NCBI GenBank assembly: GCA_016193585.1
Contig: JACPRW010000003.1
Span: 263,303-327,302 of the forward strand
Length of the DNA: 64,000 bases
Source: Candidatus Aenigmatarchaeota archaeon
GTDB taxonomy: Archaea; Aenigmatarchaeota; Aenigmatarchaeia; GW2011-AR5
Reading direction: 5' to 3'
A program made the position numbers and the translations under genes. Below the pieces are notes generated by a model, which was not told the origin of the DNA, did no database searches, and saw only the letters and a program-made list of their open reading frames with translations. Positions 21,185 through 49,636 of this stretch are shown here, piece by piece. Positions within the stretch are counted from its first letter, which is position 1; each line of letters begins with the position of its first letter.

Positions 21185-21281
21185 TATAGTGGACCAACAA
21201 AAGAATACCAACATATTACTTTTGTTGTCCGCTATAAGTGAACCAAGATATAATACCTGATTATTTACTTGGTTCACTATA
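21185..21281. repeat. Composite repeat: module D (21185-21236) + intact module A (21235-21281)
   Basis: Reverse complement of the A/D modules at 1200-1313 and 10378-10623, lacking X1. Confidence 0.9.
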
Positions 21282-21299
21282 AGCCGTAATGTAGTAAAG

Positions 21300-23385: not shown

Positions 23386-24660
23386 TTATTGCTGCGTGAG
23401 CGCCTGCAGTTCCTCGAGGTTGATGCGTATCTCCCGCTCGCTGCCCGATGCCATGTCCTTGAGCTTCAGTTTGCCCTGCTCCAGTTCCTTTTTGCCGACG
23501 ATGATGACATTCCGGACGTTGAGCTTGTTTGCGTACTCCATCTGCTTCCTGAGGTCGCGCCTGCTGAGGTCCATGATTGCGGGCAGGCATCTCTTCCTGA
23601 GCGCCTGCACGACATTTACGGCGTCGGCAAACATGTCGCCGGTGGCATAGGCGACAAAGTACTGGTCGGCGGCGATGGTCGCAGGCAATAGTTTCTTGGC
23701 TTCCAGTGTGATGAGGAGGCGCTCGATGCCGCCGGCAACGCCAGTTGCGGGCATCGGCTTGCCATAGATGCTGAGCAGGTCATCGTAGCGCCCGCCGCCG
23801 GCGACAGCACCTGTCTTCCCGTCGACCCATGCCTCGTAGACGGTGCCGGTGTAATAGTCGATGCCGCGTACGATGCTCAAATCAAGTGTACATCTATCCG
23901 CAATCTTGTACGTCCCGAGGAGCGCGAAGAGCTGCTCCAGCTCCTTGTAACCTTCCTGCGCCAGCTCGTTCTTCGGCATCGTCGCTTTCACGGATTCGAG
24001 CGTGGCGCCGCCTTTGCACAGCGTGAGAATTGCATCCGCCTGTTTCTTGCCAACATCACATTTCGCGAATTCCTTGATGAGCTGCTGCTTGCTCAGTTTC
24101 GCCGTCTTGTCGATGACGCGGAGGACGGCCGCGAGCCTCTTCTTGTCGATGCCAATGCCGAGCACGAAGCCCTCGATGAGCTTGCGGTTGTTGATGCGTA
24201 TCTGGGCATCAAGGCCAAGCCCTTTGAACGCCTCTATCATGAGCGCGATGATTTCCGCGTCAGCTTCCGCGCCCGCGCAGCCATATACCTCGGCGTCCCA
24301 CTGCCAGAACGAGCGGTAGCGGGCGTACTGCGGGTTGTCGTAGCGCCACATGTTCGAGATGCACGCAAGGCGCAGCGGCTTCGGCGCGTCCGTCGAAGCA
24401 ACGTAGCGTGCCATGCCGACAGTGAGGTCGAAACGCAAACCTATTTTGCGTTTCGCTTTATCCTCGAACGCGTATATCTCCTTTTCGAGGTCAGGCCCGC
24501 TCTTCGCCGTGAGCGTTTCCAGGTTCTCCAGCGCCGACGGCTCGACGAGCTGGAAGCCGAAGCGGCGCAGCGCGTCCTTCAGCCTGGCGACGACGTATTC
24601 CCGCTTCGCCATCTCGTCAGGCGCAATGTCCTTCATGCCTTTGGGCAGGGTGAATTTCAT
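23386..24660 (-). CDS. hisS: Histidyl-tRNA synthetase
   Basis: LRFDLT, RYRSFWQWDAE, RGIDYYTG, GGGRYDDL, GIERL, anticodon-binding domain. Confidence 0.95.
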   Translation of the reverse strand: MKFTLPKGMKDIAPDEMAKREYVVARLKDALRRFGFQLVEPSALENLETLTAKSGPDLEKEIYAFEDKAKRKIGLRFDLTVGMARYVASTDAPKPLRLACISNMWRYDNPQYARYRSFWQWDAEVYGCAGAEADAEIIALMIEAFKGLGLDAQIRINNRKLIEGFVLGIGIDKKRLAAVLRVIDKTAKLSKQQLIKEFAKCDVGKKQADAILTLCKGGATLESVKATMPKNELAQEGYKELEQLFALLGTYKIADRCTLDLSIVRGIDYYTGTVYEAWVDGKTGAVAGGGRYDDLLSIYGKPMPATGVAGGIERLLITLEAKKLLPATIAADQYFVAYATGDMFADAVNVVQALRKRCLPAIMDLSRRDLRKQMEYANKLNVRNVIIVGKKELEQGKLKLKDMASGSEREIRINLEELQALTQQ

Positions 24661-25886
24661 TGCTTCATCAACCTCATCACGGCTGATTTTTTGTGGGCAT
24701 CAAGCCCTTCCACTTCGGCCAGTTGTATCGCCTGCTTGGAAACCGTGTCAAACCCCTTTCTTGTTACATATTGCCCGGCGCGTATTAAAATAAAGTCCTT
24801 TACCGAGAGGACGGAGGAAAATCGTGCGCTCCCTCCGGTAGGCAGGATGTGGTTCGAGCCGGTGACGTAATCGCCCAGCATATTTGCCGAGTAATAGCCG
24901 GCAAAGAGCGTTCCATAGTTCCTCAGTCCTCTATATTTTCTTGGGTCTTTTACTTGGAGTTCTATGTGTTCAGAAGCCAGCTCGTTAGCTAGTCGAACTG
25001 CTTCTCCGGCAGTTTTCACGAGGATGATTTTCAAGTTGCTTTGCACCGCGCTTCGTGCAGTCCTGCTGGTCTTTAATCGCTTCAGCTGTTTGGTTACCTC
25101 CTTTCCGGTTTCACGTGCTACTGTCTTCGAATTGGTGATGAGGACAGGCACGGCATCTTCGTCGTGCTCTGCTTCAGAGAGAAGATCCGCGGCTACTGCA
25201 CCGGAATCCGCGCTTTCATCAGCGATGACAAGTATTTCGCTCGGTCCTGCAAGCATGTCAATGCCGACATCTCCGTAGACGAATTTCTTCGCCGCTGTCA
25301 CGAATCTGTTGCCAGGACCGGCAATTTTGTCGACTTTTGGGATTGTTTCCGTGCCGTATGCCATGGCTGCGATGGCATGCGCCCCGCCTACCCTGAAAAT
25401 TTTTTGGACGCCGCACAGGTCAGCTGCTACAAGGATAACGGGGCTTATGGAACCTTTGTACGATGGCGGGGAGCACAGTATAATTTTCTCGACTCCGGCG
25501 ACCGTTGCAGGGACAGCAGCCATGATGACGGTTGACGGAAGCGGGAAGTTTCCTCCTGGAACGTATATGCCTACCCTCGCTACAGGTATCGTCTTTTGTG
25601 TTATGGTGACGCCCTTAACAATCTGCAGTTCAAAATCGCCGAATTGCCGCATCTGCCTTTTTGATAGCTTCTCTACGTTTCGTTTTGCAAGCGTTAGCGC
25701 CGCAAGCGTTTCCTTCCCGACCTGCCCGTACGCAGCCTCTATTTCTTTGTCCGTGATTTCTAGATTCTCCAGTTTAACCTTGTCGAATGTTTCTGTAAAT
25801 TTGAGCAGCGCTTTATCTCCTTTTTTCTTCACTTCGCGGCAGATAGACGAAACTAATGCTTCTTGTTGCAGGCTCTTCCGTTTCAT
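24657..25886 (-). CDS. hisD: Histidinol dehydrogenase
   Basis: GIYVPGG, GPGNRFV, AGPSEI, EAEHD, HILPTGG. Confidence 0.97.
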   Translation of the reverse strand: MKRKSLQQEALVSSICREVKKKGDKALLKFTETFDKVKLENLEITDKEIEAAYGQVGKETLAALTLAKRNVEKLSKRQMRQFGDFELQIVKGVTITQKTIPVARVGIYVPGGNFPLPSTVIMAAVPATVAGVEKIILCSPPSYKGSISPVILVAADLCGVQKIFRVGGAHAIAAMAYGTETIPKVDKIAGPGNRFVTAAKKFVYGDVGIDMLAGPSEILVIADESADSGAVAADLLSEAEHDEDAVPVLITNSKTVARETGKEVTKQLKRLKTSRTARSAVQSNLKIILVKTAGEAVRLANELASEHIELQVKDPRKYRGLRNYGTLFAGYYSANMLGDYVTGSNHILPTGGSARFSSVLSVKDFILIRAGQYVTRKGFDTVSKQAIQLAEVEGLDAHKKSAVMRLMKQ

Positions 25887-27064
25887 TTTCTTCTCCCCCC
25901 GAGTTCGTTCATCACATCCCTGAAACTGATCCCGGTCTTGGCCGCCTTTACTGTAGTAAAGTACACGAGGTCAGCCAGTTCATGAATGAGTTGCTCTTTC
26001 GTTCCGGCGGTCGTGACTTCCTCGGACTCTTCAATAATTTTTTTGTCGAGCTCTTCATCGGTAAGCGAAGACGTATAAGAGCCTTTTGTGGGGTTCTGGA
26101 GCCTGTTGAGAACAATGCCGTAGAACTCTTGCATGCCGAATGCTTTATTCCCGAAACAGGAATAGCTGCCGGCGTGGCACGCGACGTTTTTCTGCTCCAC
26201 GGTGAAAAGCAGCGCATCGCTGTCGCAATCCTTGCGCAGTTCCACAAGTTCCTGAAAATTCCCTGATGTTTCGCCTTTTGTCCACAGGCGTTTTTTTGAC
26301 CTCTTGTAATACGTCGCCTTTCCTGTAGCGATGGTTTTTCGTATCGAGTCCTCGCTGCTGTACGCAAGCATCAAGGGCTGCCCTTCGCTATCCTGCACAA
26401 GCGTCGGGATAAGGCCATTATCAAAACGGAGCGTCTGGATGAAAGCCTCGGTAAGGTCAAGAACTCCGGACGCACGCGCCATGCCTACGACCGCATTTAC
26501 CCCGCGTGCTTCTATCTCCTGTATCTGGCCGGGTGATGAAATGCCACCTGCGATAGTTATTTTGCTTTTTATCGTTGCTGCCGCATTTTGCACAAAAGAC
26601 GTGTCGTAGCCTTCAAGCGTGCCTTCTTTGCTGACATCGGTAAAAAGAAATTCGGAGCAGTACGGCTCGAGAGCCTTCGCTTTTTCTATTGCGCGTGCTT
26701 TCTCTTCTTCGCCGTTGACGTCGAAAGCGGCAATGATGCAATCCCGCGGCAAACGACGCAGGAACTCCTCCGTAGCCATCGTTCCGATGATAATCTTCCC
26801 GGCCCCTGCTTTGAGTAACGCTCTCGCCTTTTCTTCTGTTCGTATGCCCCCGCCGACGCGGCATCGTGCTGCCTTGCAGAGTTCCTTCACCAACTCAAAA
26901 TTATCTCCTTTATTCAAGGCTGCGTCGAGGTCGATGACCTGAATCTCCCCGAACAATTTGAGCTTTTCAGCTATTTCAATAGGATCGCCGATGTCCACCC
27001 GTTCCTTCCTCCGGACAAACTGTACCGCTGTGCCGTCCATTATGTCGATAGCCGGGATGATCAT
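25883..27064 (-). CDS. hisA-hisIE: HisA-HisI-HisE fusion protein
   Basis: IIPAIDI..VIDLDAA (HisA), [20 protein letters not shown] (HisI), [13 protein letters not shown] (HisE). Confidence 0.9.
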
Positions 27065-27816
27065 AGTCTCACCAGTATGCCGCGTTTCCTGAGGTATTCC
27101 TTCACTTCCTGTATCCTGTATCGTCTGTAGTGGAATATGGAGGCGGCAAGTGCCGCATCGGCGCCCCCCTCCAGAAACACGTCGGCAATATCCTTCAGCG
27201 AGCCGGCTCCGCCAGACGCAATCACCGGTATCCCCACCGATGTGGCTACCGTCCTTGTCAGTTTGATGTCGTAGCCGCCAGTAGTTCCGTCAGAATCCAT
27301 GGACGTCAGGAGTAGTTCTCCTGCGCCAAGATTTTCAGCCTGCCGCGCCCATGCTATTGCGTCGAGCCCTGTATCTTCTGTCCCGCTCCTGGTGAAGACT
27401 TCCCACCTTCTGTTGCACTTTTTTGCATCGATGGCGACAACTACCGCCTGCGAGCCGAATTTTTCCGCCGCCCGTTCTATGATGCGGGGCTTTTTCACTG
27501 CCGCGCTGTTTATGGAGACCTTTTCAGCCCCCGCGTCAAGCAGGCGGCGCATGTCAGCGATGCTCCGTACGCCGCCGCCGGCGGTGAACGGGATGAAAAG
27601 GTTCTTTGAAACGTTTCTCATGATATCCACCATCGCAGTTCTTTTTTCGAGCGATGCTGTTATGTCAAGGAATACCAGCTCGTCGGCGCCTTCGTTGCCG
27701 TACAACCGGGCTAGCGCCACCGGGTCGCCGGCGTTCCTCAGGTTCGCAAAGTTAATTCCCTTCACGACCTTGCCGTCTTTGACGTCGAGGCACGGTATTA
27801 TCCTTTTAGTCAGCAT
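27061..27816 (-). CDS. hisF: Imidazole glycerol phosphate synthase cyclase subunit
   Basis: [29 protein letters not shown]. Confidence 0.97.
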
Positions 27817-28390
27817 CCAACCACCGTGCAAGTATCTCCAGACCGAACGCGCCGCTTTTTTCAGGATGAAACTGTGTCGCCATTATGTTCCCTCGCTTGA
27901 CAGCGGAAGCGAATGGTATGCCATAGTCACTCGTTGCCGCTACAATTCCCTTGTCTTCTGGTAGCGGATAATAGGAATTGGCGAAGTAGGCAAATCCTTC
28001 CCGGAATGGTTCTTTTTTCACCGGCCTGACGAGATTCCAGCCAACCTGCGGCACTTTGCCTTTCCTGAACTTGACTACGCTTCCTTCCAGTATGCCAAGG
28101 CCCCGTATACCAGGGCTTTCCTCGCTCGCCTCAAACAGCACCTGCATGCCGAGGCATATGCCGAAAAATGGCACGCCATTTTCGAGCGCCTTGGTGAGCG
28201 GTCCGATGAGGCCTTTCCTCTCAAGATTCTTCATCGCGTTGCCAAAAGAGCCCACTCCCGGAAAGATTATTTTCCCTGCTGTTGCCACGGCTTTTTTCCC
28301 CGACGTTATGGTGCTCTCAAAACCAAGGTAACGCAGCGCATTCTCAACGCTCCTTGCGTTCCCTGAGCCATAATCTATTATTGCTATCAT
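27806..28390 (-). CDS. hisH: Imidazole glycerol phosphate synthase glutaminase subunit
   Basis: [22 protein letters not shown]; start reassigned to 28390 (ATGA overlap with hisB). Confidence 0.96.
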
Positions 28391-28977
28391 TCGATAACGC
28401 CCTTCGTGCTCGGAATACCATTCAGAAGCTTCTTGTCGCGCGAGCACGCCATGTACAGCGCTTTTCCGAATGCCTTGAACAGCGCCTCGCATTTGTGGTG
28501 GTCGTTCTCCCCGTACGGCATCGTTGCGTGCAGCGTTGCCTGCAGGCCCCTGGTAAACCCCTGGAAAAACTCCTGTATGGTGTCTGCTTCGAGGTCGCCA
28601 ATTTTCGGCCGCCTGAATTTCACGCCAAAATTCAGGTACGGCCTGCCCGAGATGTCAACAGCTACCAGCGCGAGGGATTCGTCCATGGGGAATGCGAAAT
28701 AGCCGGCGCGGTTTATCCCCTGCTTGTTTCCCAGTGCCTCCCTGAACGCTTGCCCAAGGGCTATGCCGCAATCCTCTACTATGTGGTGCTGGTCCACGTC
28801 CATGTCTCCTGTCGCTTTGACGCCGATGTCAAATGCCCCGAAAAGAGAAAATGTTTCCAGCATGTGTCTGAGGAAGCCTATAGGCACGTCCAGCTTTGAT
28901 TTTCCAGAGCCTTCGATAACCAGGGAAATTTCTACCGACGTTTCAGACGTGGTTCTTGTAATTTTTGCAGGCATCAT
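28387..28977 (-). CDS. hisB: Imidazoleglycerol-phosphate dehydratase
   Basis: RTTSET, DQHHIVED, NDHHKCEA. Confidence 0.96.
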   Translation of the reverse strand: MMPAKITRTTSETSVEISLVIEGSGKSKLDVPIGFLRHMLETFSLFGAFDIGVKATGDMDVDQHHIVEDCGIALGQAFREALGNKQGINRAGYFAFPMDESLALVAVDISGRPYLNFGVKFRRPKIGDLEADTIQEFFQGFTRGLQATLHATMPYGENDHHKCEALFKAFGKALYMACSRDKKLLNGIPSTKGVIE

Positions 28978-30665
28978 TTCAGCACCTCGCTCAACCTGGC
29001 CACGTCATCCAGAACGTCTTTTGCGCCCTCTCTGAGAAGCAGCGTTTTCGTGATACTGTCCGAAGTCACGCCTATTGATTCGATGCCGGCATTTTTGGCA
29101 GCGATGATATCCTCCACGGAATCGCCTATGTAAACTGCAGAGGCGACGCCGATGCTGGTCACCGCAAGCTGTATGCCGTACGGGTCGGGTTTCAGCCTGT
29201 CGCCGACATCATCCATCGCAATGAGCGTTTCGAAAAGTTCTTTGGTTCCTGCAGACTGCAGGGCGTACAGCGCCTCTTTTTTCGGCCTTCCGGTGACCAC
29301 GCCCAAGGCGTATCTCTTTTTCAGCGAAATGAGAAGGTTCCTGTCAACGAGCCATCGTTCATTTGTCTTGTAGCTTGAATAAAATTCCTGGAATTTCCCA
29401 ATAACAGTCTTTAGTTCAGGCGCACAGACTTTTCTTCTGATGAGCTCGAATGACAGTTTCCAGTCGTTGTTGTAGTTCCCCGTGTTTTTCAGCGATCGTA
29501 TCGCTTCGTCGGTCGGGTACGTGCCGGTGAAGAATTTGACCGTTTCTTGTATGGATTTTCGGTACGATCCGCCGACGTCAACGAGGATGCCATCCATGTC
29601 GAACAGGATCGCCCTGCTTCTGAGGACTTCTCTGAGCGTCTTCAGGAACCGGCTTGCCTGTTCTTTTGTCCCAACCCCGATCCTCAGGAACCCCTCAAGC
29701 ATGGGGTAGCCTGAAACGTTCCTGACAAGGATGCCCCTGCTTTTCAGGCCGCTGAAAACGTAGTCGCAGTTAATGCCGAAATCCGCAAGAAGAAAATTCG
29801 CGTCGGTCGGGAATGTTTTTATTCCGAGATTCCCCATTTCTTCGGACAAAAAATTCTTTGCATCGCTGACTTCTTTGACATAACGTTCTACAAATTCCAC
29901 ATCGTCAAGTGCAGCAGTCGCAAGCTTTGCTGCAACGCTGTTCACGCTGTACGGGGAGGCAGCCTTCCGCACGTAGGACATGTTCTTTCTGTTTGAAATA
30001 ATGTAGCCGATGCGCAGCCCGGCAAGACCGAAGGCCTTCGAGAACGTCTGAATGATAATCAGATTCTCAAATTCATTTATTTTTCCCTTGAAACTGTTCC
30101 CTGCATATTGATAATACGCTTCGTCGAGAAGGACAATGGCATTTTTTGCCTTCTTGATAATTGCTGTAATGACAGCATCGTCAACCGACGTCCCTGTGGG
30201 GTTGTTAGGATTGACGAGAATCACCATTCTTGTTTTGCCGGTTATGGAATCAAGGAATTTTTCTCCGGGGAATGAAAGGTCTTTCTGGTAGGGAATTTCT
30301 CTTATTCGTGCCCCTGCGATGCGTGCGTAGAACCCGAACATGGCAAAGGTTGGCACTGCGAGAACCACCTCGTCCCCCTTTTCAAGGTAGACGTCCATGA
30401 CGAGTTTTATCGCCTCGTCGCTGCCGTTTGTCGGAATTAGTTCTTCTTCGCTGAGCGACAGGTAATTTGCCAGTTTTCTAGTGAGCGCGCTGTATTCCGG
30501 ATACGCCGAAAGCTCTTCGGAGGTTATTTTACGCAGCGCTTCCATGGCCTTTGGCGAACAACCTGCAGTATTCTCGTTGAAGTCAAGCCGCAACGCTCCC
30601 AATCTCCCGGTATTCGGAGGCTTGTAGGGCTCCATCTTTATTATGCACTTCTTAGGCTGAACCAT
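28974..30665 (-). CDS. hisC: Histidinol-phosphate aminotransferase fused to a HAD-family phosphatase
   Basis: LDFNEN, NPNNPTG, DEAY, TFSKAFGLAGLRIGY followed by FDMDGILVD..TGRP..KP.P..YIGDSVED. Confidence 0.92.
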   Translation of the reverse strand: MVQPKKCIIKMEPYKPPNTGRLGALRLDFNENTAGCSPKAMEALRKITSEELSAYPEYSALTRKLANYLSLSEEELIPTNGSDEAIKLVMDVYLEKGDEVVLAVPTFAMFGFYARIAGARIREIPYQKDLSFPGEKFLDSITGKTRMVILVNPNNPTGTSVDDAVITAIIKKAKNAIVLLDEAYYQYAGNSFKGKINEFENLIIIQTFSKAFGLAGLRIGYIISNRKNMSYVRKAASPYSVNSVAAKLATAALDDVEFVERYVKEVSDAKNFLSEEMGNLGIKTFPTDANFLLADFGINCDYVFSGLKSRGILVRNVSGYPMLEGFLRIGVGTKEQASRFLKTLREVLRSRAILFDMDGILVDVGGSYRKSIQETVKFFTGTYPTDEAIRSLKNTGNYNNDWKLSFELIRRKVCAPELKTVIGKFQEFYSSYKTNERWLVDRNLLISLKKRYALGVVTGRPKKEALYALQSAGTKELFETLIAMDDVGDRLKPDPYGIQLAVTSIGVASAVYIGDSVEDIIAAKNAGIESIGVTSDSITKTLLLREGAKDVLDDVARLSEVLK

Positions 30666-31236
30666 TGGCACCACCGATGACAAGAAAGTCGCTCCCGAAA
30701 ATCTTCTGGTAAACCTGCAGCTTGTTGTCCCTCATCGAATCGCCTGTATACACTATGTCGATAACGAGGTCGGAAATCCCTTCCGCGCATGCCATTTCCA
30801 CGCAGCCATTGAGGTACGTTTTCCTGAACGTGTAGCCCTGACGCTCAAGGGCATTGAGAAATCTCCTCGACATATTTTTGTATTTCGCGTTTATGCAAAC
30901 CGTAGGAATCGGAGGCACGTCGTCAAGGCCCTTGCCTTCCGGTCCGAGCAGACAGAGCGTTGGCTTCCCGAACATGGCGCTTGGGTCATTCCAGACAATT
31001 CGTTGTACGACAGAGAGCCCGCCTCTCCTGTTTCCCAGGCACCATTCCCTGTACAAGTCCTCTCCAGTGAGTCCCAATGTTTGCTTTCCCAGACTCGAAA
31101 ACTCGTATACCAATGACGGGACGTCCTCTCCCCTCGCCTCTATTATCTTGCTTCCGTTGATGTCCATGGAAGAGAGGGCTATTTGCCGGTATGCTCTGAG
31201 GCCGCTGTTTTTCGGGACGACTATTATGGAGTTCAT
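30652..31236 (-). CDS. hisG: ATP phosphoribosyltransferase, short form (divergent)
   Basis: RGEDVP, GLTGEDL, KY, GCVE, IDIVYTG; first gene of the operon. Confidence 0.85.
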   Translation of the reverse strand: MNSIIVVPKNSGLRAYRQIALSSMDINGSKIIEARGEDVPSLVYEFSSLGKQTLGLTGEDLYREWCLGNRRGGLSVVQRIVWNDPSAMFGKPTLCLLGPEGKGLDDVPPIPTVCINAKYKNMSRRFLNALERQGYTFRKTYLNGCVEMACAEGISDLVIDIVYTGDSMRDNKLQVYQKIFGSDFLVIGGANGSA

Positions 31237-31242
31237 GAAACA

Positions 31243-31464
31243 TCACGTTTTCAGGGACGCAGCCGGGAATTGAACCCGGGATAAAGGATTCACAGCCCTT
31301 TGTGTTTTCACTACACCACCGCAGCCATTGGCAACAGTAAAAGAGACGTAATCTCCAGAAGCAAGCCCCAGGGACCTTCGTATGTCTGCCGGGACGAATA
31401 CCCTGCCCTTCGCGTCGAGGCAGTATCGTCCGTTGCCGGAGATGACTACCCTGCGATTGGGCAA
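31243..31464 (-). CDS. AbrB/MazE/SpoVT-like DNA-binding protein whose 3' end reads through a tRNA-His-like sequence
   Basis: LDAKGRVFVPADIRRSLGL..GDYV motif; TTG start. Confidence 0.6.
   Translation of the reverse strand: MPNRRVVISGNGRYCLDAKGRVFVPADIRRSLGLASGDYVSFTVANGCGGVVKTQRAVNPLSRVQFPAASLKT
31255..31326 (-). tRNA. Second, intronless and atypical tRNA-His(GUG)
   Basis: G-1:C73, AAGGG-CTGTGAA-TCCTT anticodon arm, CCGGG-TTCAATT-CCCGG T-arm; C2.U71 mismatch and D-loop lacking GG. Confidence 0.75.
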
Positions 31465-31713
31465 ATCAGCAGAAAACGATGCAGAAGGAAAACTGCCCTT
31501 AAGGCGTGCAGGGACATAGATTCTGCCGCGGTCGTCAATCTTCGCGGAAAACGTCCGGGCGGCAAAGCTAGAGAAATCGCGCTTCAGATTGCCGCGCTTA
31601 CTGCAGGTGAAGGCACTCGCCTGTGGGGTCTATCAACTCTCACTGGTAACACCTTCCATTCCTTACCGCACAGTTCTACTTAAAGATTTTGTGGGTAAAT
31701 GGTTGTGTTTACT

Positions 31714-31808
31714 TATAGTTAACCAAGTAAAGAATCCGGATATTATAACTTGGTTCACTATATGTGACCAACTTGTGTAATACCTGAATATTAAGTTGGT
31801 CAGCTATA
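31714..31808. repeat. Two single-hairpin modules: A' (31714-31762) + J (31759-31808)
   Basis: TATAG...CTATA termini, shared TATA junction, AATNCNGGATATTAT-like loop. Confidence 0.85.
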
Positions 31809-31923
31809 AAGGTTGATTTTTCCCATGTTAAAAAATTGGTTGTTTCGTTGTTTTTTGTTAAATTTTCGGTTACATAAAGTAGAATTAAAAGGTTTATGAT
31901 TCATGTAATAAAATCTGATTTTA

Positions 31924-32706
31924 ATGACAAAATTAAATCTCATACGTCCTTTAGCTTTCATTGACTTAGAAACTACTGGTCTCAATACGCAACAAGATCG
32001 TATTGTAGATATATGCGTAACAAAAATTTACCCAGATGGAAAAGAAGAATCATTGAGTTCTTTTATTAATCCAACTATACTGATTTCTGTTGAAGCTACA
32101 AATATCCATGGCATAACAAATGCAGATGTTGAAGGTAAACCAGTTTTTGGAGAATTTTCATCACAATTATTTGATTTTATAGATGGATGTGACTTGGCCG
32201 GATTCGGAATAATAAAGTTCGATTTTCCTGTTCTTGAATCTGAATTCAAGAGAGCCGGAATAGTTTTTTCAAAAGATGGCAGACAAATAGTCGATGTTCA
32301 AAATATTTATCACAAATTAGAACCCAGAGATTTAAGTGCCGCACACTTAAGGTACTGTGGCAAGGTTTTAGAAAATGCACATAGAGCACAGTCCGATGTT
32401 AAGGCAACTATAGATGTGCTTGAATCTCAATTGGAACACCACACTAATTTGCCACATGATATTTTCGGTCTGAATGAATTTTGCAACCCGAAAGACCCTA
32501 CGTGGATTGATGAGGACGGAAAATTTGCATGGTTTAAGGACGAGGCTATTGTAAATTTTGGAACTCACAAAAGCAAGACACTTCAATCTATATGTAGGGA
32601 TAAACCTGACTACCTTCAATGGATTATAAGTAAAGATTTCTCACCGAAGGTCAAACAGATAGCTGAAGACGCCCTTCGAGGCAAATTCCCAATACGGCAA
32701 GCATAA
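31924..32706 (+). CDS. DEDDh 3'-5' exonuclease (DnaQ/PolIII epsilon-like), AT-rich
   Basis: FIDLETTG, FD, HRAQSDV; far more AT-rich than neighbours by eye. Confidence 0.92.
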   Translation: MTKLNLIRPLAFIDLETTGLNTQQDRIVDICVTKIYPDGKEESLSSFINPTILISVEATNIHGITNADVEGKPVFGEFSSQLFDFIDGCDLAGFGIIKFDFPVLESEFKRAGIVFSKDGRQIVDVQNIYHKLEPRDLSAAHLRYCGKVLENAHRAQSDVKATIDVLESQLEHHTNLPHDIFGLNEFCNPKDPTWIDEDGKFAWFKDEAIVNFGTHKSKTLQSICRDKPDYLQWIISKDFSPKVKQIAEDALRGKFPIRQA

Positions 32707-32723
32707 AGTTAGGTCTTGTGAAT

Positions 32724-32820
32724 TATAGCTCTACAAGGAAACAACCAAGATATTATTTCCTTGTGAGCTATATGTGAAACCAGTTGTAATATATCCAGAT
32801 TATTTACTGGTTTCACTATA
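32724..32820. repeat. Two single-hairpin modules: K (32724-32772) + F (32769-32820)
   Basis: Same consensus as the other modules. Confidence 0.85.
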
Positions 32821-33073
32821 ATTATAATACATTTGGCATGCTGGTACACGCGCTCAATCATGATCGCGCTATTATGGAGCGTGTGCTGAATGAGATGTAT
32901 GAAATAAACAATTGGAAAGAGAGAAAAGGGCTAAAAGCCGAATGCTGCAAGAGTACTTCTGTCCAAATCGACATGATGCCGAGTTACTGAAAAAAATTCT
33001 TCCGGATATATTCCCACTTTTCACTCTCATACGCTCGGCGCGCTTTTATTACAACGGGAAGCTAATACTACGC

Positions 33074-33715
33074 ATGTTCTCGCTTTCGCCGACGGCGCTC
33101 AACGAGTTCCGTGACTGCCCGCTGTGCTTCTGGCTGCACCGGAGGAAAGGCATCGCTTCTCCCGGCGGCCCCTTGCCGACCATCACCAACGGCTTGGACC
33201 GCGTCATCAAGGAGTACATGAACCGTTACCGTCCGCGCGGCAGCATCCCGCCGTTCCTCGAGGGTAAAGTTCCGGGAAGGCTCATTGAGTTTCTGCCCGC
33301 GACGCTCGCGTGCAGCATCGGCGGCAATACGCTTTCCGGCAGGCTCGACGAATGCCTCGTCATGGACAGCGGCAACCACGCGCCGCTCGACCACAAGACG
33401 CGCGGATTTGCGCTCAAGGACGGCCATGAGGTGCACCCGTCGTACCAGCTGCAGATGGACTGCTATGCGCTGCTCCTGCAACGGAGAGGGCATGCCATCG
33501 GCGACGAGGCGTTCATCGTCTACTACTATCCTGATTTCGGCGAACTGCACCAGGGCATCCCCTTCAGGGTGAGCGTGCACCGGCTCAGGACGAATCCGCG
33601 CCGCGCGGAACAGGTGTTCGCGGATGCGGTAGCGTGCCTGCAGGGAGAGAAGCCCGAGCCCGGAGCCGGCTGCGGCCTGTGCGCGTACGTGGGCGAGCGG
33701 TTGCAACCTTCTTAA
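33074..33715 (+). CDS. PD-(D/E)XK nuclease (RecB/Cas4-like)
   Basis: LSPTALNEFRDCPLCF, GRLDEC..LDHKT, QMDCYA, CGLC; start reassigned. Confidence 0.85.
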   Translation: MFSLSPTALNEFRDCPLCFWLHRRKGIASPGGPLPTITNGLDRVIKEYMNRYRPRGSIPPFLEGKVPGRLIEFLPATLACSIGGNTLSGRLDECLVMDSGNHAPLDHKTRGFALKDGHEVHPSYQLQMDCYALLLQRRGHAIGDEAFIVYYYPDFGELHQGIPFRVSVHRLRTNPRRAEQVFADAVACLQGEKPEPGAGCGLCAYVGERLQPS

Positions 33716-34931: not shown

Positions 34932-35029
34932 GGCCGCTGCCGAGATTTGAACTCGGTCCGAAGGCTCACCGCAGCACGTTCGCCAAGTGCATCCACAGGC
35001 CTGCATGCTGCCGTTACACCACAGCGGCC
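34932..35029 (-). tRNA. tRNA-His(GUG), canonical intron (34967-34992), encoded G-1
   Basis: Acceptor GCCGCTG/CAGCGGC, loop CTGTGG|A, BHB CTGT/GCGG. Confidence 0.9.
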
Positions 35030-49518: not shown

Positions 49519-49636
49519 TGGGCCCGGCAGGAATTGAACCTGCGACCTTCGCCGTTTCTTCAACACTTTCCTTCTGAAAGCTTAGTGAAGGCGACATTTG
49601 GTAGACACTCGTCTCATACCACTAGACTACAGGCCC
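49519..49636 (-). tRNA. tRNA-Val(CAC) with introns at about 23/24 (49598-49614) and 36/37 (49556-49584)
   Basis: BHB helices GGTA/TACC and CTTC/GAAG; only these boundaries give a 7-nt anticodon loop; mature 72 nt. Confidence 0.88.

Follow-up and report, generated by a model that had tools for sequence, protein, structure and literature searches.

A tRNA-His gene in the leader of a DPANN-type histidine operon and candidate histidine-codon frameshift sites around it

The window analyzed here, a stretch of 64,000 nucleotides (nt) of contig JACPRW010000003.1 (assembly GCA_016193585.1, positions 263,303 to 327,302) from a Candidatus Aenigmatarchaeota archaeon, carries on its minus strand an operon for histidine biosynthesis (his operon), and an intronless tRNA-His(GUG) gene is located in the leader of this operon directly upstream of hisG. 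We propose that this is a genuine tRNA-His gene in the leader of a DPANN-type his operon, which would be co-transcribed with the his genes and be combined with a ribosome-based histidine sensor, and we put the probability of this explanation as a whole at roughly 0.5. The comparisons given below make it highly probable that the tRNA is neither a chance match nor an independent gene, but an ancestral co-transcribed part of the operon head. That the His codons of the leader serve, like the prfB and Ty1 sites, as gates for +1 frameshifting and sense His-tRNA in this way is put forward tentatively, at odds slightly below even. All coordinates are positions in the window; loci and contigs of relatives are labeled L and homologous proteins P, each followed by a number.

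The tRNA gene embedded in the leader has the following position and structure.

31255 to 31326, minus strand: intronless tRNA-His(GUG), with encoded G-1 at 31326 and C73 at 31255, C2.U71, U3.G70, G6.U67, A19 and A37; CCA is not encoded

ARAGORN called a tRNA-His(gtg) at 31254-31325 on the minus strand, the sole intronless tRNA of the window, and Rfam returned a match of 71 nt to RF00005 at 31325-31255 (48.4 bits against a gathering score of 29, E=2.7e-7), which is far above chance. Both programs bear out an earlier note, made from the sequence alone, which had described an intronless tRNA-His(GUG) on the same strand as hisG; the spacer between C73 and the hisG ATG (31236) is 18 nt, as had been stated there. 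With a cloverleaf over the RF00005 threshold and the anticodon GUG the gene is classified as a tRNA-His isoacceptor, and the main identity element of histidyl-tRNA synthetase (HisRS), G-1:C73, is present (G 31326, C 31255), as are all four stems, U8, A14, G15:C48, U33 and the T-loop. The D-loop reads AGUGAAA, in which G18 is followed by A19 and the GG is lacking, and the anticodon loop reads CUGUGAA with A at position 37. Full acceptor pairing and the complete set of G18-G19/U55-C56 nucleotides are not found (G18 A19, C56, C2.U71); the Rfam alignment marks C2.U71 as a mismatch and shows both oddities reported in the earlier note, this mismatch and the missing GG. No variant of the tRNA was found among Logan contigs from four groundwater runs.

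For the comparison with relatives one genome per GTDB species was scanned, which yielded 68 loci with this HisG type, 65 of them with enough upstream sequence, and tRNA genes were detected in these 65 loci using ARAGORN with introns enabled and by inspection by eye. A tRNA-His(GUG) at most 260 nt upstream of hisG and on the same strand was present in 40 of the 65 loci, which are mostly from DPANN metagenome-assembled genomes (MAGs); the number of 40 includes five genes misnamed by ARAGORN owing to introns and three genes with a T-loop intron that were seen by eye. The tRNA-His was located at 300-480 nt upstream of hisG in a further three loci, a hisS-like gene was situated between tRNA-His and hisG in four, and one locus (L048) contained a broken tRNA-His relic. 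In 20 loci for which ARAGORN gave no hisG-adjacent tRNA-His none was recovered with Rfam, and three of these (L021, L023, L049) carry the tRNA-His with a T-loop intron. These three genes, overlooked by ARAGORN and Rfam alike, are at L021:3847-3948, L023:1641-1784 and L049:2562-2695, and those of L023 and L049 have a second intron after position 37.

Where checked, the hisG-adjacent tRNA heads the same operon ending in hisS, and in some relatives a hisS-like gene is placed directly before or after hisG. The shared gene order and the hisS linkage in relatives indicate that tRNA-His, pathway and synthetase form a conserved module, and the wide distribution of the arrangement in relatives indicates that the tRNA belongs to the operon architecture. 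The search of other his operons that had been suggested in the earlier note thus succeeded, and the possibility raised there that the tRNA simply arrived with the operon is supported by the spread of the arrangement. A full-text literature search of incomplete coverage returned no description of a linkage of tRNA-His to the his operon, or of leader-peptide sensing, in archaea.

Most operon tRNAs of the relatives (about 38) are canonical, with the D-loop A-R-Y-G-G-Y-A, G37 and near-perfect stems, and G-1 is present in all of them, usually with AU before it. Only the window and L070 combine a D-loop AGUGAnA with A37 in the embedded operon tRNA, and again only these two loci have a second canonical tRNA-His nearby. 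The embedded tRNA of L070 has A19, A37, U56 and perfect stems; the window has C56. By overall identity the embedded tRNA of the window is closest to the operon tRNA of L027, which identifies it as a diverged member of the operon-head tRNA class. Since a canonical tRNA-His is also present in the genome, the embedded copy may have drifted or specialized (A19, A37, weak acceptor stem), and it would be either released from decoding or adapted to another role.

A metagenome scan for the atypical pattern of D-loop and anticodon loop returned 12 tRNA-His genes, each of them part of a dense tRNA array. These array genes share the D-arm GUGU-AGUGAnA-RCAC and the anticodon loop CUGUGAA with the window tRNA; unlike it they encode CCA and pair A19 with U56, and not one of the 12 is near hisG. 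A foreign origin of the embedded tRNA from such arrays was considered and rejected, as overall identity places it no nearer to the arrays than to DPANN operon tRNAs such as that of L027. The metagenome contigs in question (L072-L083) carry dense arrays of 5-27 tRNA genes of phage or bacterial type, mostly CCA-encoding (with the exception of L080, two calls), and their tRNA-His has the D-loop AGUGAUA, A37 and U56, that is, an A19:U56 covariation. It was also observed that A-U precedes the encoded G-1 in the tRNA-His genes of about 80% of the loci, by which an "AUG" abuts G1; the same is seen at both tRNA-His copies of the window (31329-31326; 35031-35029), and it may be an RNase P cleavage determinant that leaves G-1 in place.

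The leader between the last AT-rich box and hisG contains the following features.

31676 to 31695, minus strand: promoter-like element with B recognition element (BRE) and TATA box, ACCCACAAAATCTTTAAGTA, the last AT-rich box before hisG
31584 to 31643, minus strand: upstream open reading frame (uORF) a, GTG start, VRVDRPHRRVPSPAVSAAI followed by a stop, preceded by AGGUG; homologue of the L085 uORF beginning MRVECLHWRLPS
31622 to 31628, minus strand: candidate gate 1, CCC CAC A, a His codon after a CCC-C slippery site; the +1 frame is TGECLHLQ followed by a stop
31598 to 31636, minus strand: middle frame (L)IDPTGECLHLQ and stop, with a second His codon; compare L070 uORF1 MITQTGSDCLHRQY and stop, and L085 TGDCLHRR and stop
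31606 to 31612, minus strand: candidate gate 2, CUU CAC C; the +1 frame is the MraZ/AbrB-like open reading frame (ORF); GAGTGCCTTCAC is conserved with L085 and L086
31243 to 31629, minus strand: MraZ/AbrB-like frame with two D-x-x-G-R half motifs, running through the tRNA to the TGA at 31245-31243
31234 to 31246, minus strand: junction GUGAUGUUUCAUG, in which the long-frame stop UGA overlaps the AUG (UGAUG)
31240 to 31234, minus strand: candidate gate 3, UUU-CAU-G; the +1 frame is the hisG AUG

In archaea a promoter requires a TATA box at about -26, and oligo-T serves for termination. An AT-rich box was defined as an octamer with at least seven of eight A/T, and on the minus strand no such octamer was present between 31683 and hisG (31236), nor was any run of at least five T from 31835 to the inside of the operon. 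Under these rules for archaeal promoters and terminators the lack of an internal AT-rich box and of a T-tract points to a single transcript that would start near 31655 and continue through the tRNA into hisG. The element at 31695-31676 is the putative promoter; it is conserved in L085 as CCCACAAAACCTTTAAAT ahead of the orthologous leader, and it is also present in L086 ahead of the uORF of its hisG. An RNase P/RNase Z processing point, one of the two roles considered in the earlier note, would fit a leader that has no promoter-like box or T-tract between its promoter and hisG.

Read from the GTG at 31643, the leader forms a staircase of overlapping frames, in which the mini-ORF (VRVDRPH...) leads to CCC-CAC-A, the +1 frame TGECLHLQ with its stop leads to CUU-CAC-C, and the next +1 frame is the MraZ/AbrB-like ORF. 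The staircase of L085 matches it (MRVECLHW..., TGDCLHRR and stop, then the protein), and the window leader aligns with L085 through promoter, uORF and both His sites, with one motif copy of L085 missing in the window. At the position aligned with gate 1, L086 has CCCCCAC and L085 has CTTCAC. Gates 1, 2 and 3 all combine a slippery P-site codon with a potentially slow codon, as at known +1 frameshift sites; an early zero-frame stop together with a long start-less conserved +1 ORF is found at gates 1 and 2. Gate 3 is the weakest of the three, its His frame being open for 85 codons without an early stop; an SD-like (Shine-Dalgarno-like) GUGAU is located 5 nt before the hisG AUG. In a strict search neither the motif of Woesearchaeota leaders nor CAYCAY was found in the window leader, and the diverged motif was recognized through L085, L086 and L070. 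From these sites we infer possible frameshifting at the gates and a possible handover of ribosomes at the junction.

The earlier note had described an AbrB/SpoVT-like ORF that encloses the tRNA. This ORF (31464-31243, TTG start, 73 amino acids (aa)) does hold the whole tRNA and ends with a TGA 6 nt before hisG, but its AbrB match is below the Pfam threshold (MazE_antitoxin, 21.9 bits against 24.7), and it is the full stop-to-stop frame (31629-31246) that passes the cutoff of Pfam MraZ, PF02381 (31 bits against 23). Homology reaches about 40 codons upstream of the TTG at 31464, and no ATG, GTG or TTG is present in the frame before 31464. Over 102 codons the frame is intact, with no internal stops, and its identity to five proteins (P0121, P0135-P0138) is 53-64%; P0121 aligns at 57% identity (E=8e-23), and the gene of P0136 is located directly upstream of a hisG gene. 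These homologues end approximately at the start of the tRNA, which means that the tRNA supplies a tail of 28 residues and the stop. The chance that the frame stays open across the tRNA (27 codons) is about 0.3. An interpretation of the frame as a pseudogene was considered and dropped given the five homologues and the homologous gates. In L014 and L048, too, an ORF overlaps the tRNA; this AbrB-type ORF differs from that of the window and L085: in L014 it has no start codon, reads through the tRNA and has a stop overlapping the hisG ATG (ATGA), and in L048 it is fused to hisG. A separate observation concerns a conserved AbrB-ACT fusion gene of about 130 aa, placed immediately ahead of the his leader at 120-300 nt upstream of hisG in seven tRNA-less loci (L007, L012, L013, L018, L019, L044, L050), the product of which is probably a histidine-responsive regulator.

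Gates of this kind were searched for in related leaders using a strict definition, namely an ATG-led ORF with NUU-CAY that had to stop within 15 codons, while its +1 frame had to remain open over 30 codons or more. Counted without regard to shared ancestry, as are the Phe codons below, a strict gate was present in 56 of 66 related leaders and led into hisG as the +1 frame in 42 of 66; the controls gave 2/66 for the reverse complement and 1/55 and 3/55 inside downstream genes. At the hisG-start site Phe is encoded by TTC in 40 loci and, one codon out of register, in seven more, with no TTT seen, whereas TTT prevails over TTC in the background of the hisG body (287 vs 142). The codon before His at this site is NUU in 40 of 44 cases. 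Free of coding constraints from HisG are the upstream motif copies, the gates of the AbrB family and L086. Two kinds of mini-ORF were distinguished in the relatives.

Most loci L004-L071, with L053:3960-4010 and L009, L015, L017, L034, L065 and L068: SD-led ATG mini-ORF (...SDCIHC...stop) in the -1 frame over the hisG start
200 to 410 nt upstream of hisG in L020, L022, L024, L028, L029, L031, L033, L035, L036, L038 and L042, also in L041, L070 and L071: leaderless mini-ORF with its +1 ORF

In seven relatives an in-frame hisG start is absent, and L053 has a TAG directly before the site; at such hisG starts gene callers have chosen arbitrary GTGs (e.g., P0111). In loci of the Woesearchaeota type a TATA box is located 22-26 nt before the leaderless ATG mini-ORF (e.g., MKRVDCIHCE and stop). 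In 11 loci the +1 frame of this mini-ORF comprises exactly 37 codons, with 2-4 His codons at its end (...SMHHHC and stop), after which T-tracts follow; this 37-codon ORF looks like an archaeal his leader peptide. The order is then continued by tRNA-His and by the SD-ATG mini-ORF (...SDCIHC... and stop), the +1 frame of which is hisG. Loci of the Iainarchaeota type have both sites and an AbrB-ACT gene upstream, and the tRNA is absent. In L070, L011 and L015 the hisG-start motif is present a second time; a relic of duplication was considered for this copy, which is instead the conserved leader mini-ORF.

A three-frame staircase into the AbrB-type ORF is found in each of L085, L014 and L048, and in L014, as in the window, the ORF at the end of the staircase has no start codon. 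Site and frame relation are conserved in L085, L086, L014 and L048. The HisG of L086 is of a different type, a HisG-PRA-CH fusion, and is annotated from an internal ATG (L086:395-560). Its conserved N-terminus IFIALAKGELGK is encoded upstream in frame without a start codon, and is accessible only via a +1 shift from the SD-ATG mini-ORF MGEYLH (CUU-CAU-A).

The second tRNA-His and the operon downstream of the leader consist of the following features.

34932 to 35028, minus strand: second tRNA-His(GUG), canonical, with an intron after position 37 (Rfam, 44.2 bits)
30652 to 31236, minus strand: hisG, short-form ATP phosphoribosyltransferase, 194 aa (Pfam HisG, E=9e-18)
23386 to 30683, minus strand: hisC-HAD fusion, hisB, hisH, hisF, hisA-hisIE fusion, hisD and hisS (NCBIfam)

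The second copy, which had been described as a normal intron-containing tRNA-His at 34932-35029 and was recovered as such by Rfam, is located 3.6 kb upstream of the embedded copy and has an intron of about 26 nt, the D-loop GG, G37 and a perfect acceptor stem. It is among three intron-bearing tRNAs that Rfam reported in the window and that mark the organism as an archaeon. An element bounded by the two tRNA-His genes as att sites was considered and rejected, as the genes are dissimilar and both of full length, and no integrase is encoded between them. The HisG of the window has 182 homologues, the closest at most 57% identical; those named among the closest are from Woese-, Aenigm-, Nano-, Pace- and Iainarchaeota MAGs. 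The DPANN-type operon order is tRNA-His, hisG, hisC/HAD, hisB, hisH, hisF, hisA/IE, hisD, hisS, and a Woesearchaeota contig (L084) has the same order as the window including the terminal hisS. The HisS that had been placed at 23386-24660 is above the NCBIfam cutoff for HisRS (24660-23386; TIGR00442, 357.7 bits against 286.75). Short-form HisG normally depends on HisZ, a paralogue of HisRS. No separate hisZ was seen in the window operon in the NCBIfam scan, and a gene for HisRS or a HisRS-like protein is always linked to hisG, in three orders (window 23386-24660; L056, L059, L066, L067, L069, L070, L071); the operon HisRS may double as HisZ. Further observations are the fusion of hisC to a HAD phosphatase (28974-30683), the HAD part of which is a probable histidinol-phosphatase and which is conserved in the Woesearchaeota operon, and the hisA-hisIE fusion (25883-27064), which is found in that operon as well.

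Read from sequences, frames, homologies and conservation, co-transcription, processing, frameshifting and a histidine response could be connected as follows. Transcription from the element at 31695-31676 would cover the tRNA and the his genes, the tRNA itself lacking a separate promoter and terminator. The tRNA would then be excised by RNase P and tRNase Z, and this would set the 5' end of the his mRNA at 17-18 nt before the hisG AUG. Ribosomes would read the leader as a histidine sensor, starting at the GTG mini-ORF, meeting CCC-CAC-A and shifting by +1 toward CUU-CAC-C; a second +1 shift would enter the start-less MraZ/AbrB-like ORF, which stays open through the tRNA to UGAUG, UUU-CAU-G and the hisG AUG. 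Under scarcity of His-tRNA, ribosomes would pause at the His codons, which would favor the +1 shifts and bring them to hisG. In the window, L014 and L048 it would be the frame open through the tRNA that delivers ribosomes to hisG, and a given transcript would either be translated through the tRNA or have the tRNA excised from it. The interpretation in the earlier note is in part retained, since membership of the tRNA in the operon and a processing role agree with the present data; no support was found for its tRNA mimic, and the conserved mini-ORF gates with His codons had been overlooked.

Several known systems resemble parts of this proposal. As in enterobacterial hisL attenuation (RF00514), a leader ahead of hisG contains short ORFs with His codons that would report the supply of His-tRNA, and some relatives come nearer to hisL by a 37-codon leader ORF with 2-4 consecutive terminal His codons and T-tracts. 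Unlike hisL the system is archaeal, has single His codons in place of a run of seven, links overlapping frames by +1-slippery sites and includes a tRNA gene in the leader; the his leader model RF00514 gave no Rfam match in the window leader even at E<=1, and CAYCAY is absent from it. The sites resemble programmed +1 frameshifting in prfB (RF2), antizyme and the "hungry codon" of yeast Ty1 in P-site re-pairing at CCC-C, CUU-C and UUU-C with a slow codon next, in a zero frame that stops soon, in a start-less main ORF in the +1 frame, and in an SD-like GUGAU 3 nt upstream in many relatives. They differ in that the slow codon is a sense codon for the end product histidine instead of a stop or rare codon, in that two or three sites stand in series, and in being archaeal and predicted.

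tRNA genes that are co-transcribed with protein genes and act as processing signals are known from thrU-tyrU-glyT-thrT-tufB of Escherichia coli, from mitochondrial tRNA punctuation and from tRNA-like elements in Haloferax. The window is similar to these in that its tRNA immediately precedes a coding region and leaves no space for a promoter, and in that cuts by RNase P and tRNase Z would set the mRNA 5' end. It differs in that the amino acid of the tRNA matches the downstream pathway, in that the synthetase is encoded in the same operon, and in that the tRNA is located inside an ORF in the window, L014 and L048. In the E. coli thrS leader mimic and in T-box riboswitches, too, a tRNA or tRNA-like RNA is tied to the control of amino-acid genes; those elements are partial mimics or leaders that bind a tRNA, but here the tRNA gene is complete and is located upstream of hisG and not of hisS. 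No T-box or mimic structure was found, and tRNA models gave the only Rfam matches in 30900-32000.

A number of observations weigh against our proposal. In the window hisG has its own in-frame AUG and the SD-like GUGAU, and hence needs no gate. The window gates fall outside the strict definition, with GTG/TTG starts and gate 3 without an early stop, and a relaxed gate occurs by chance about once per 4.7 kb in the window; the case for them rests on homology to L085, L086 and L070. The loss of one motif copy relative to L085 could have shifted the MraZ/AbrB ORF out of frame recently and made it a fresh pseudogene, and a protein or an RNA could bind to the conserved motif instead. The leader is kept without the tRNA in L041 (Woesearchaeota type) and in the loci of the Iainarchaeota type, and in leaders of the Woesearchaeota type the tRNA is not translated through, which indicates that the tRNA is not an obligatory part of the sensor. 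There may be a TATA-less or weak internal promoter. The window locus was not found in the RNA runs searched, and words from L010 were absent from two marine metatranscriptome runs. The cloverleaf is not the minimum-free-energy fold of the embedded tRNA, alone or in context, and the z-scores are unremarkable; for a tRNA this is uninformative and counts weakly in either direction.

Two rival explanations concern the status of the tRNA gene itself. The embedded copy could be a functionless, dying duplicate of the ancestral arrangement, with the canonical copy decoding and the ORF and gates being relics or coincidences. Its damage would agree with this (C2.U71, two acceptor G.U pairs, loss of G19 and G37), as would the absence of its own promoter and terminator, the MraZ/AbrB-like frame without a start codon, the motif copy that is missing relative to L085, and the fact that a relaxed gate is not rare by chance. 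Decay is difficult to reconcile, however, with an Rfam score of 48.4 bits that exceeds the 44.2 bits of the canonical copy, with the retention of all stems and key nucleotides, and with a MraZ/AbrB frame that is intact for 102 codons and 53-64% identical to real proteins; A19 and A37 moreover appear independently in the perfect-stemmed tRNA of L070, a repetition not expected from random decay. We regard this explanation as unlikely. The gene could otherwise be an ordinary second tRNA-His isodecoder that is independently expressed and used in translation, its adjacency to hisG being synteny without a mechanism. A complete cloverleaf with G-1:C73 and the anticodon GUG would be expected of such a gene, most relatives have a canonical tRNA next to hisG, possibly as their sole tRNA-His gene, and the occurrence of AGUGANA with A37 in tRNA-His genes of dense arrays implies that selection can maintain such tRNAs. 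In the arrays A19 pairs with U56, whereas the window has C56; independent expression is at odds with the lack of a TATA-like box for about 350 nt upstream, of a T-tract downstream, and with only 18 nt to hisG; and an adjacency in 40 of 65 species representatives with several phylum-level labels would be hard to keep without selection. An independent isodecoder is therefore improbable.

Two others assign the regulation to a protein. The gate motif (GUGAUUGUAUUCAU, with variants such as GAGUGCCUUCAC) could be bound, as an operator or in the RNA, by a regulator that responds to histidine, for instance an AbrB-type protein encoded nearby, with the tRNA simply co-transcribed. The motif is present twice per leader on the same strand, genes for AbrB-ACT (Iainarchaeota type) or MraZ/AbrB-like proteins adjoin many such leaders, and TTC is kept also at hisG starts for which no ATG-led uORF was detected. 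A binding site would, however, not explain a +1 frame of exactly 37 codons with 2-4 terminal His codons in 11 loci; each copy of the motif is located in a short ORF, either leaderless at TATA-box distance or SD-led, in which the His codon is invariant and its neighbors vary, and several main ORFs have no start codon at all. An operator thus also seems unlikely to us. The earlier note had suggested a cis-regulatory tRNA mimic as one possibility, and in its fuller form such a mimic would bind the operon HisRS, or HisRS acting as HisZ together with short-form HisG, and couple his expression or HisG activity to charging. It could account for the linkage in several orders (tRNA-hisS-hisG, tRNA-hisG-hisS, tRNA-hisG...hisD-hisS), for the retained G-1:C73 and for the operon without a separate hisZ. 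A shared function in histidine supply accounts for the linkage equally well, the window protein scores as HisRS and not as HisZ, and the element is a full cloverleaf with counterparts that are canonical in about 38 relatives and absent from others with the same leader; leaders without a tRNA count against the tRNA itself as the sensor. We consider a HisRS-binding mimic very improbable.

A co-transcribed tRNA-His in a leader read by ribosomes remains our preferred explanation. In its strongest form, which we consider possible but doubtful, DPANN his operons would be under a hitherto undescribed ribosome-based sensor, in which serial single-His NUU-CAY/CCC-CAY "hungry-codon" gates lead into an AbrB/MraZ-type regulator and into HisG, with passage from the short leader ORF through the successive frames confined to conditions of scarce His-tRNA. 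The window transcript would then serve either as mRNA, with ribosomes unfolding the tRNA, or as tRNA precursor, and the weakened tRNA with A19 and A37 would be a copy suited to both roles.

Other features of the window were recorded. A segment of low GC content at 31600-33100 (31-42% against about 53% in the flanks) contains a gene for a 3'-5' exonuclease (31924-32706) that is at least 90% identical to Aenigmarchaeota MAG proteins, and it has the appearance of an island that was acquired by recent transfer and borders on the his leader. At 31713-31810 there is a repeat of about 97 nt that forms a hairpin; it has a partial copy at 21237-21283 and resembles a miniature inverted-repeat transposable element. 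In four groundwater metagenomes it reaches about 50 times the depth of its flanks in many variant contexts, and Logan contigs break there; in two runs the depth to the right of the repeat is one third of that to the left, which suggests that the junction is heterogeneous in the population. A tRNA gene at 49519-49636 on the minus strand has two introns, in the D-loop and in the anticodon loop (Rfam, 43.7 bits).

The regulation of amino-acid biosynthesis in archaea is poorly understood. In practical terms, gene callers mis-start or truncate hisG at these loci (e.g., L086, L053) and miss tRNA genes with T-loop introns. If the signals described here are functional, they would provide a testable case of +1 frameshifting that depends on a sense codon (His) and serves as a metabolic sensor, a rare instance of a tRNA gene within a translated frame, and a conserved histidine module of tRNA, pathway and synthetase in organisms that are thought to be biosynthetically minimal.

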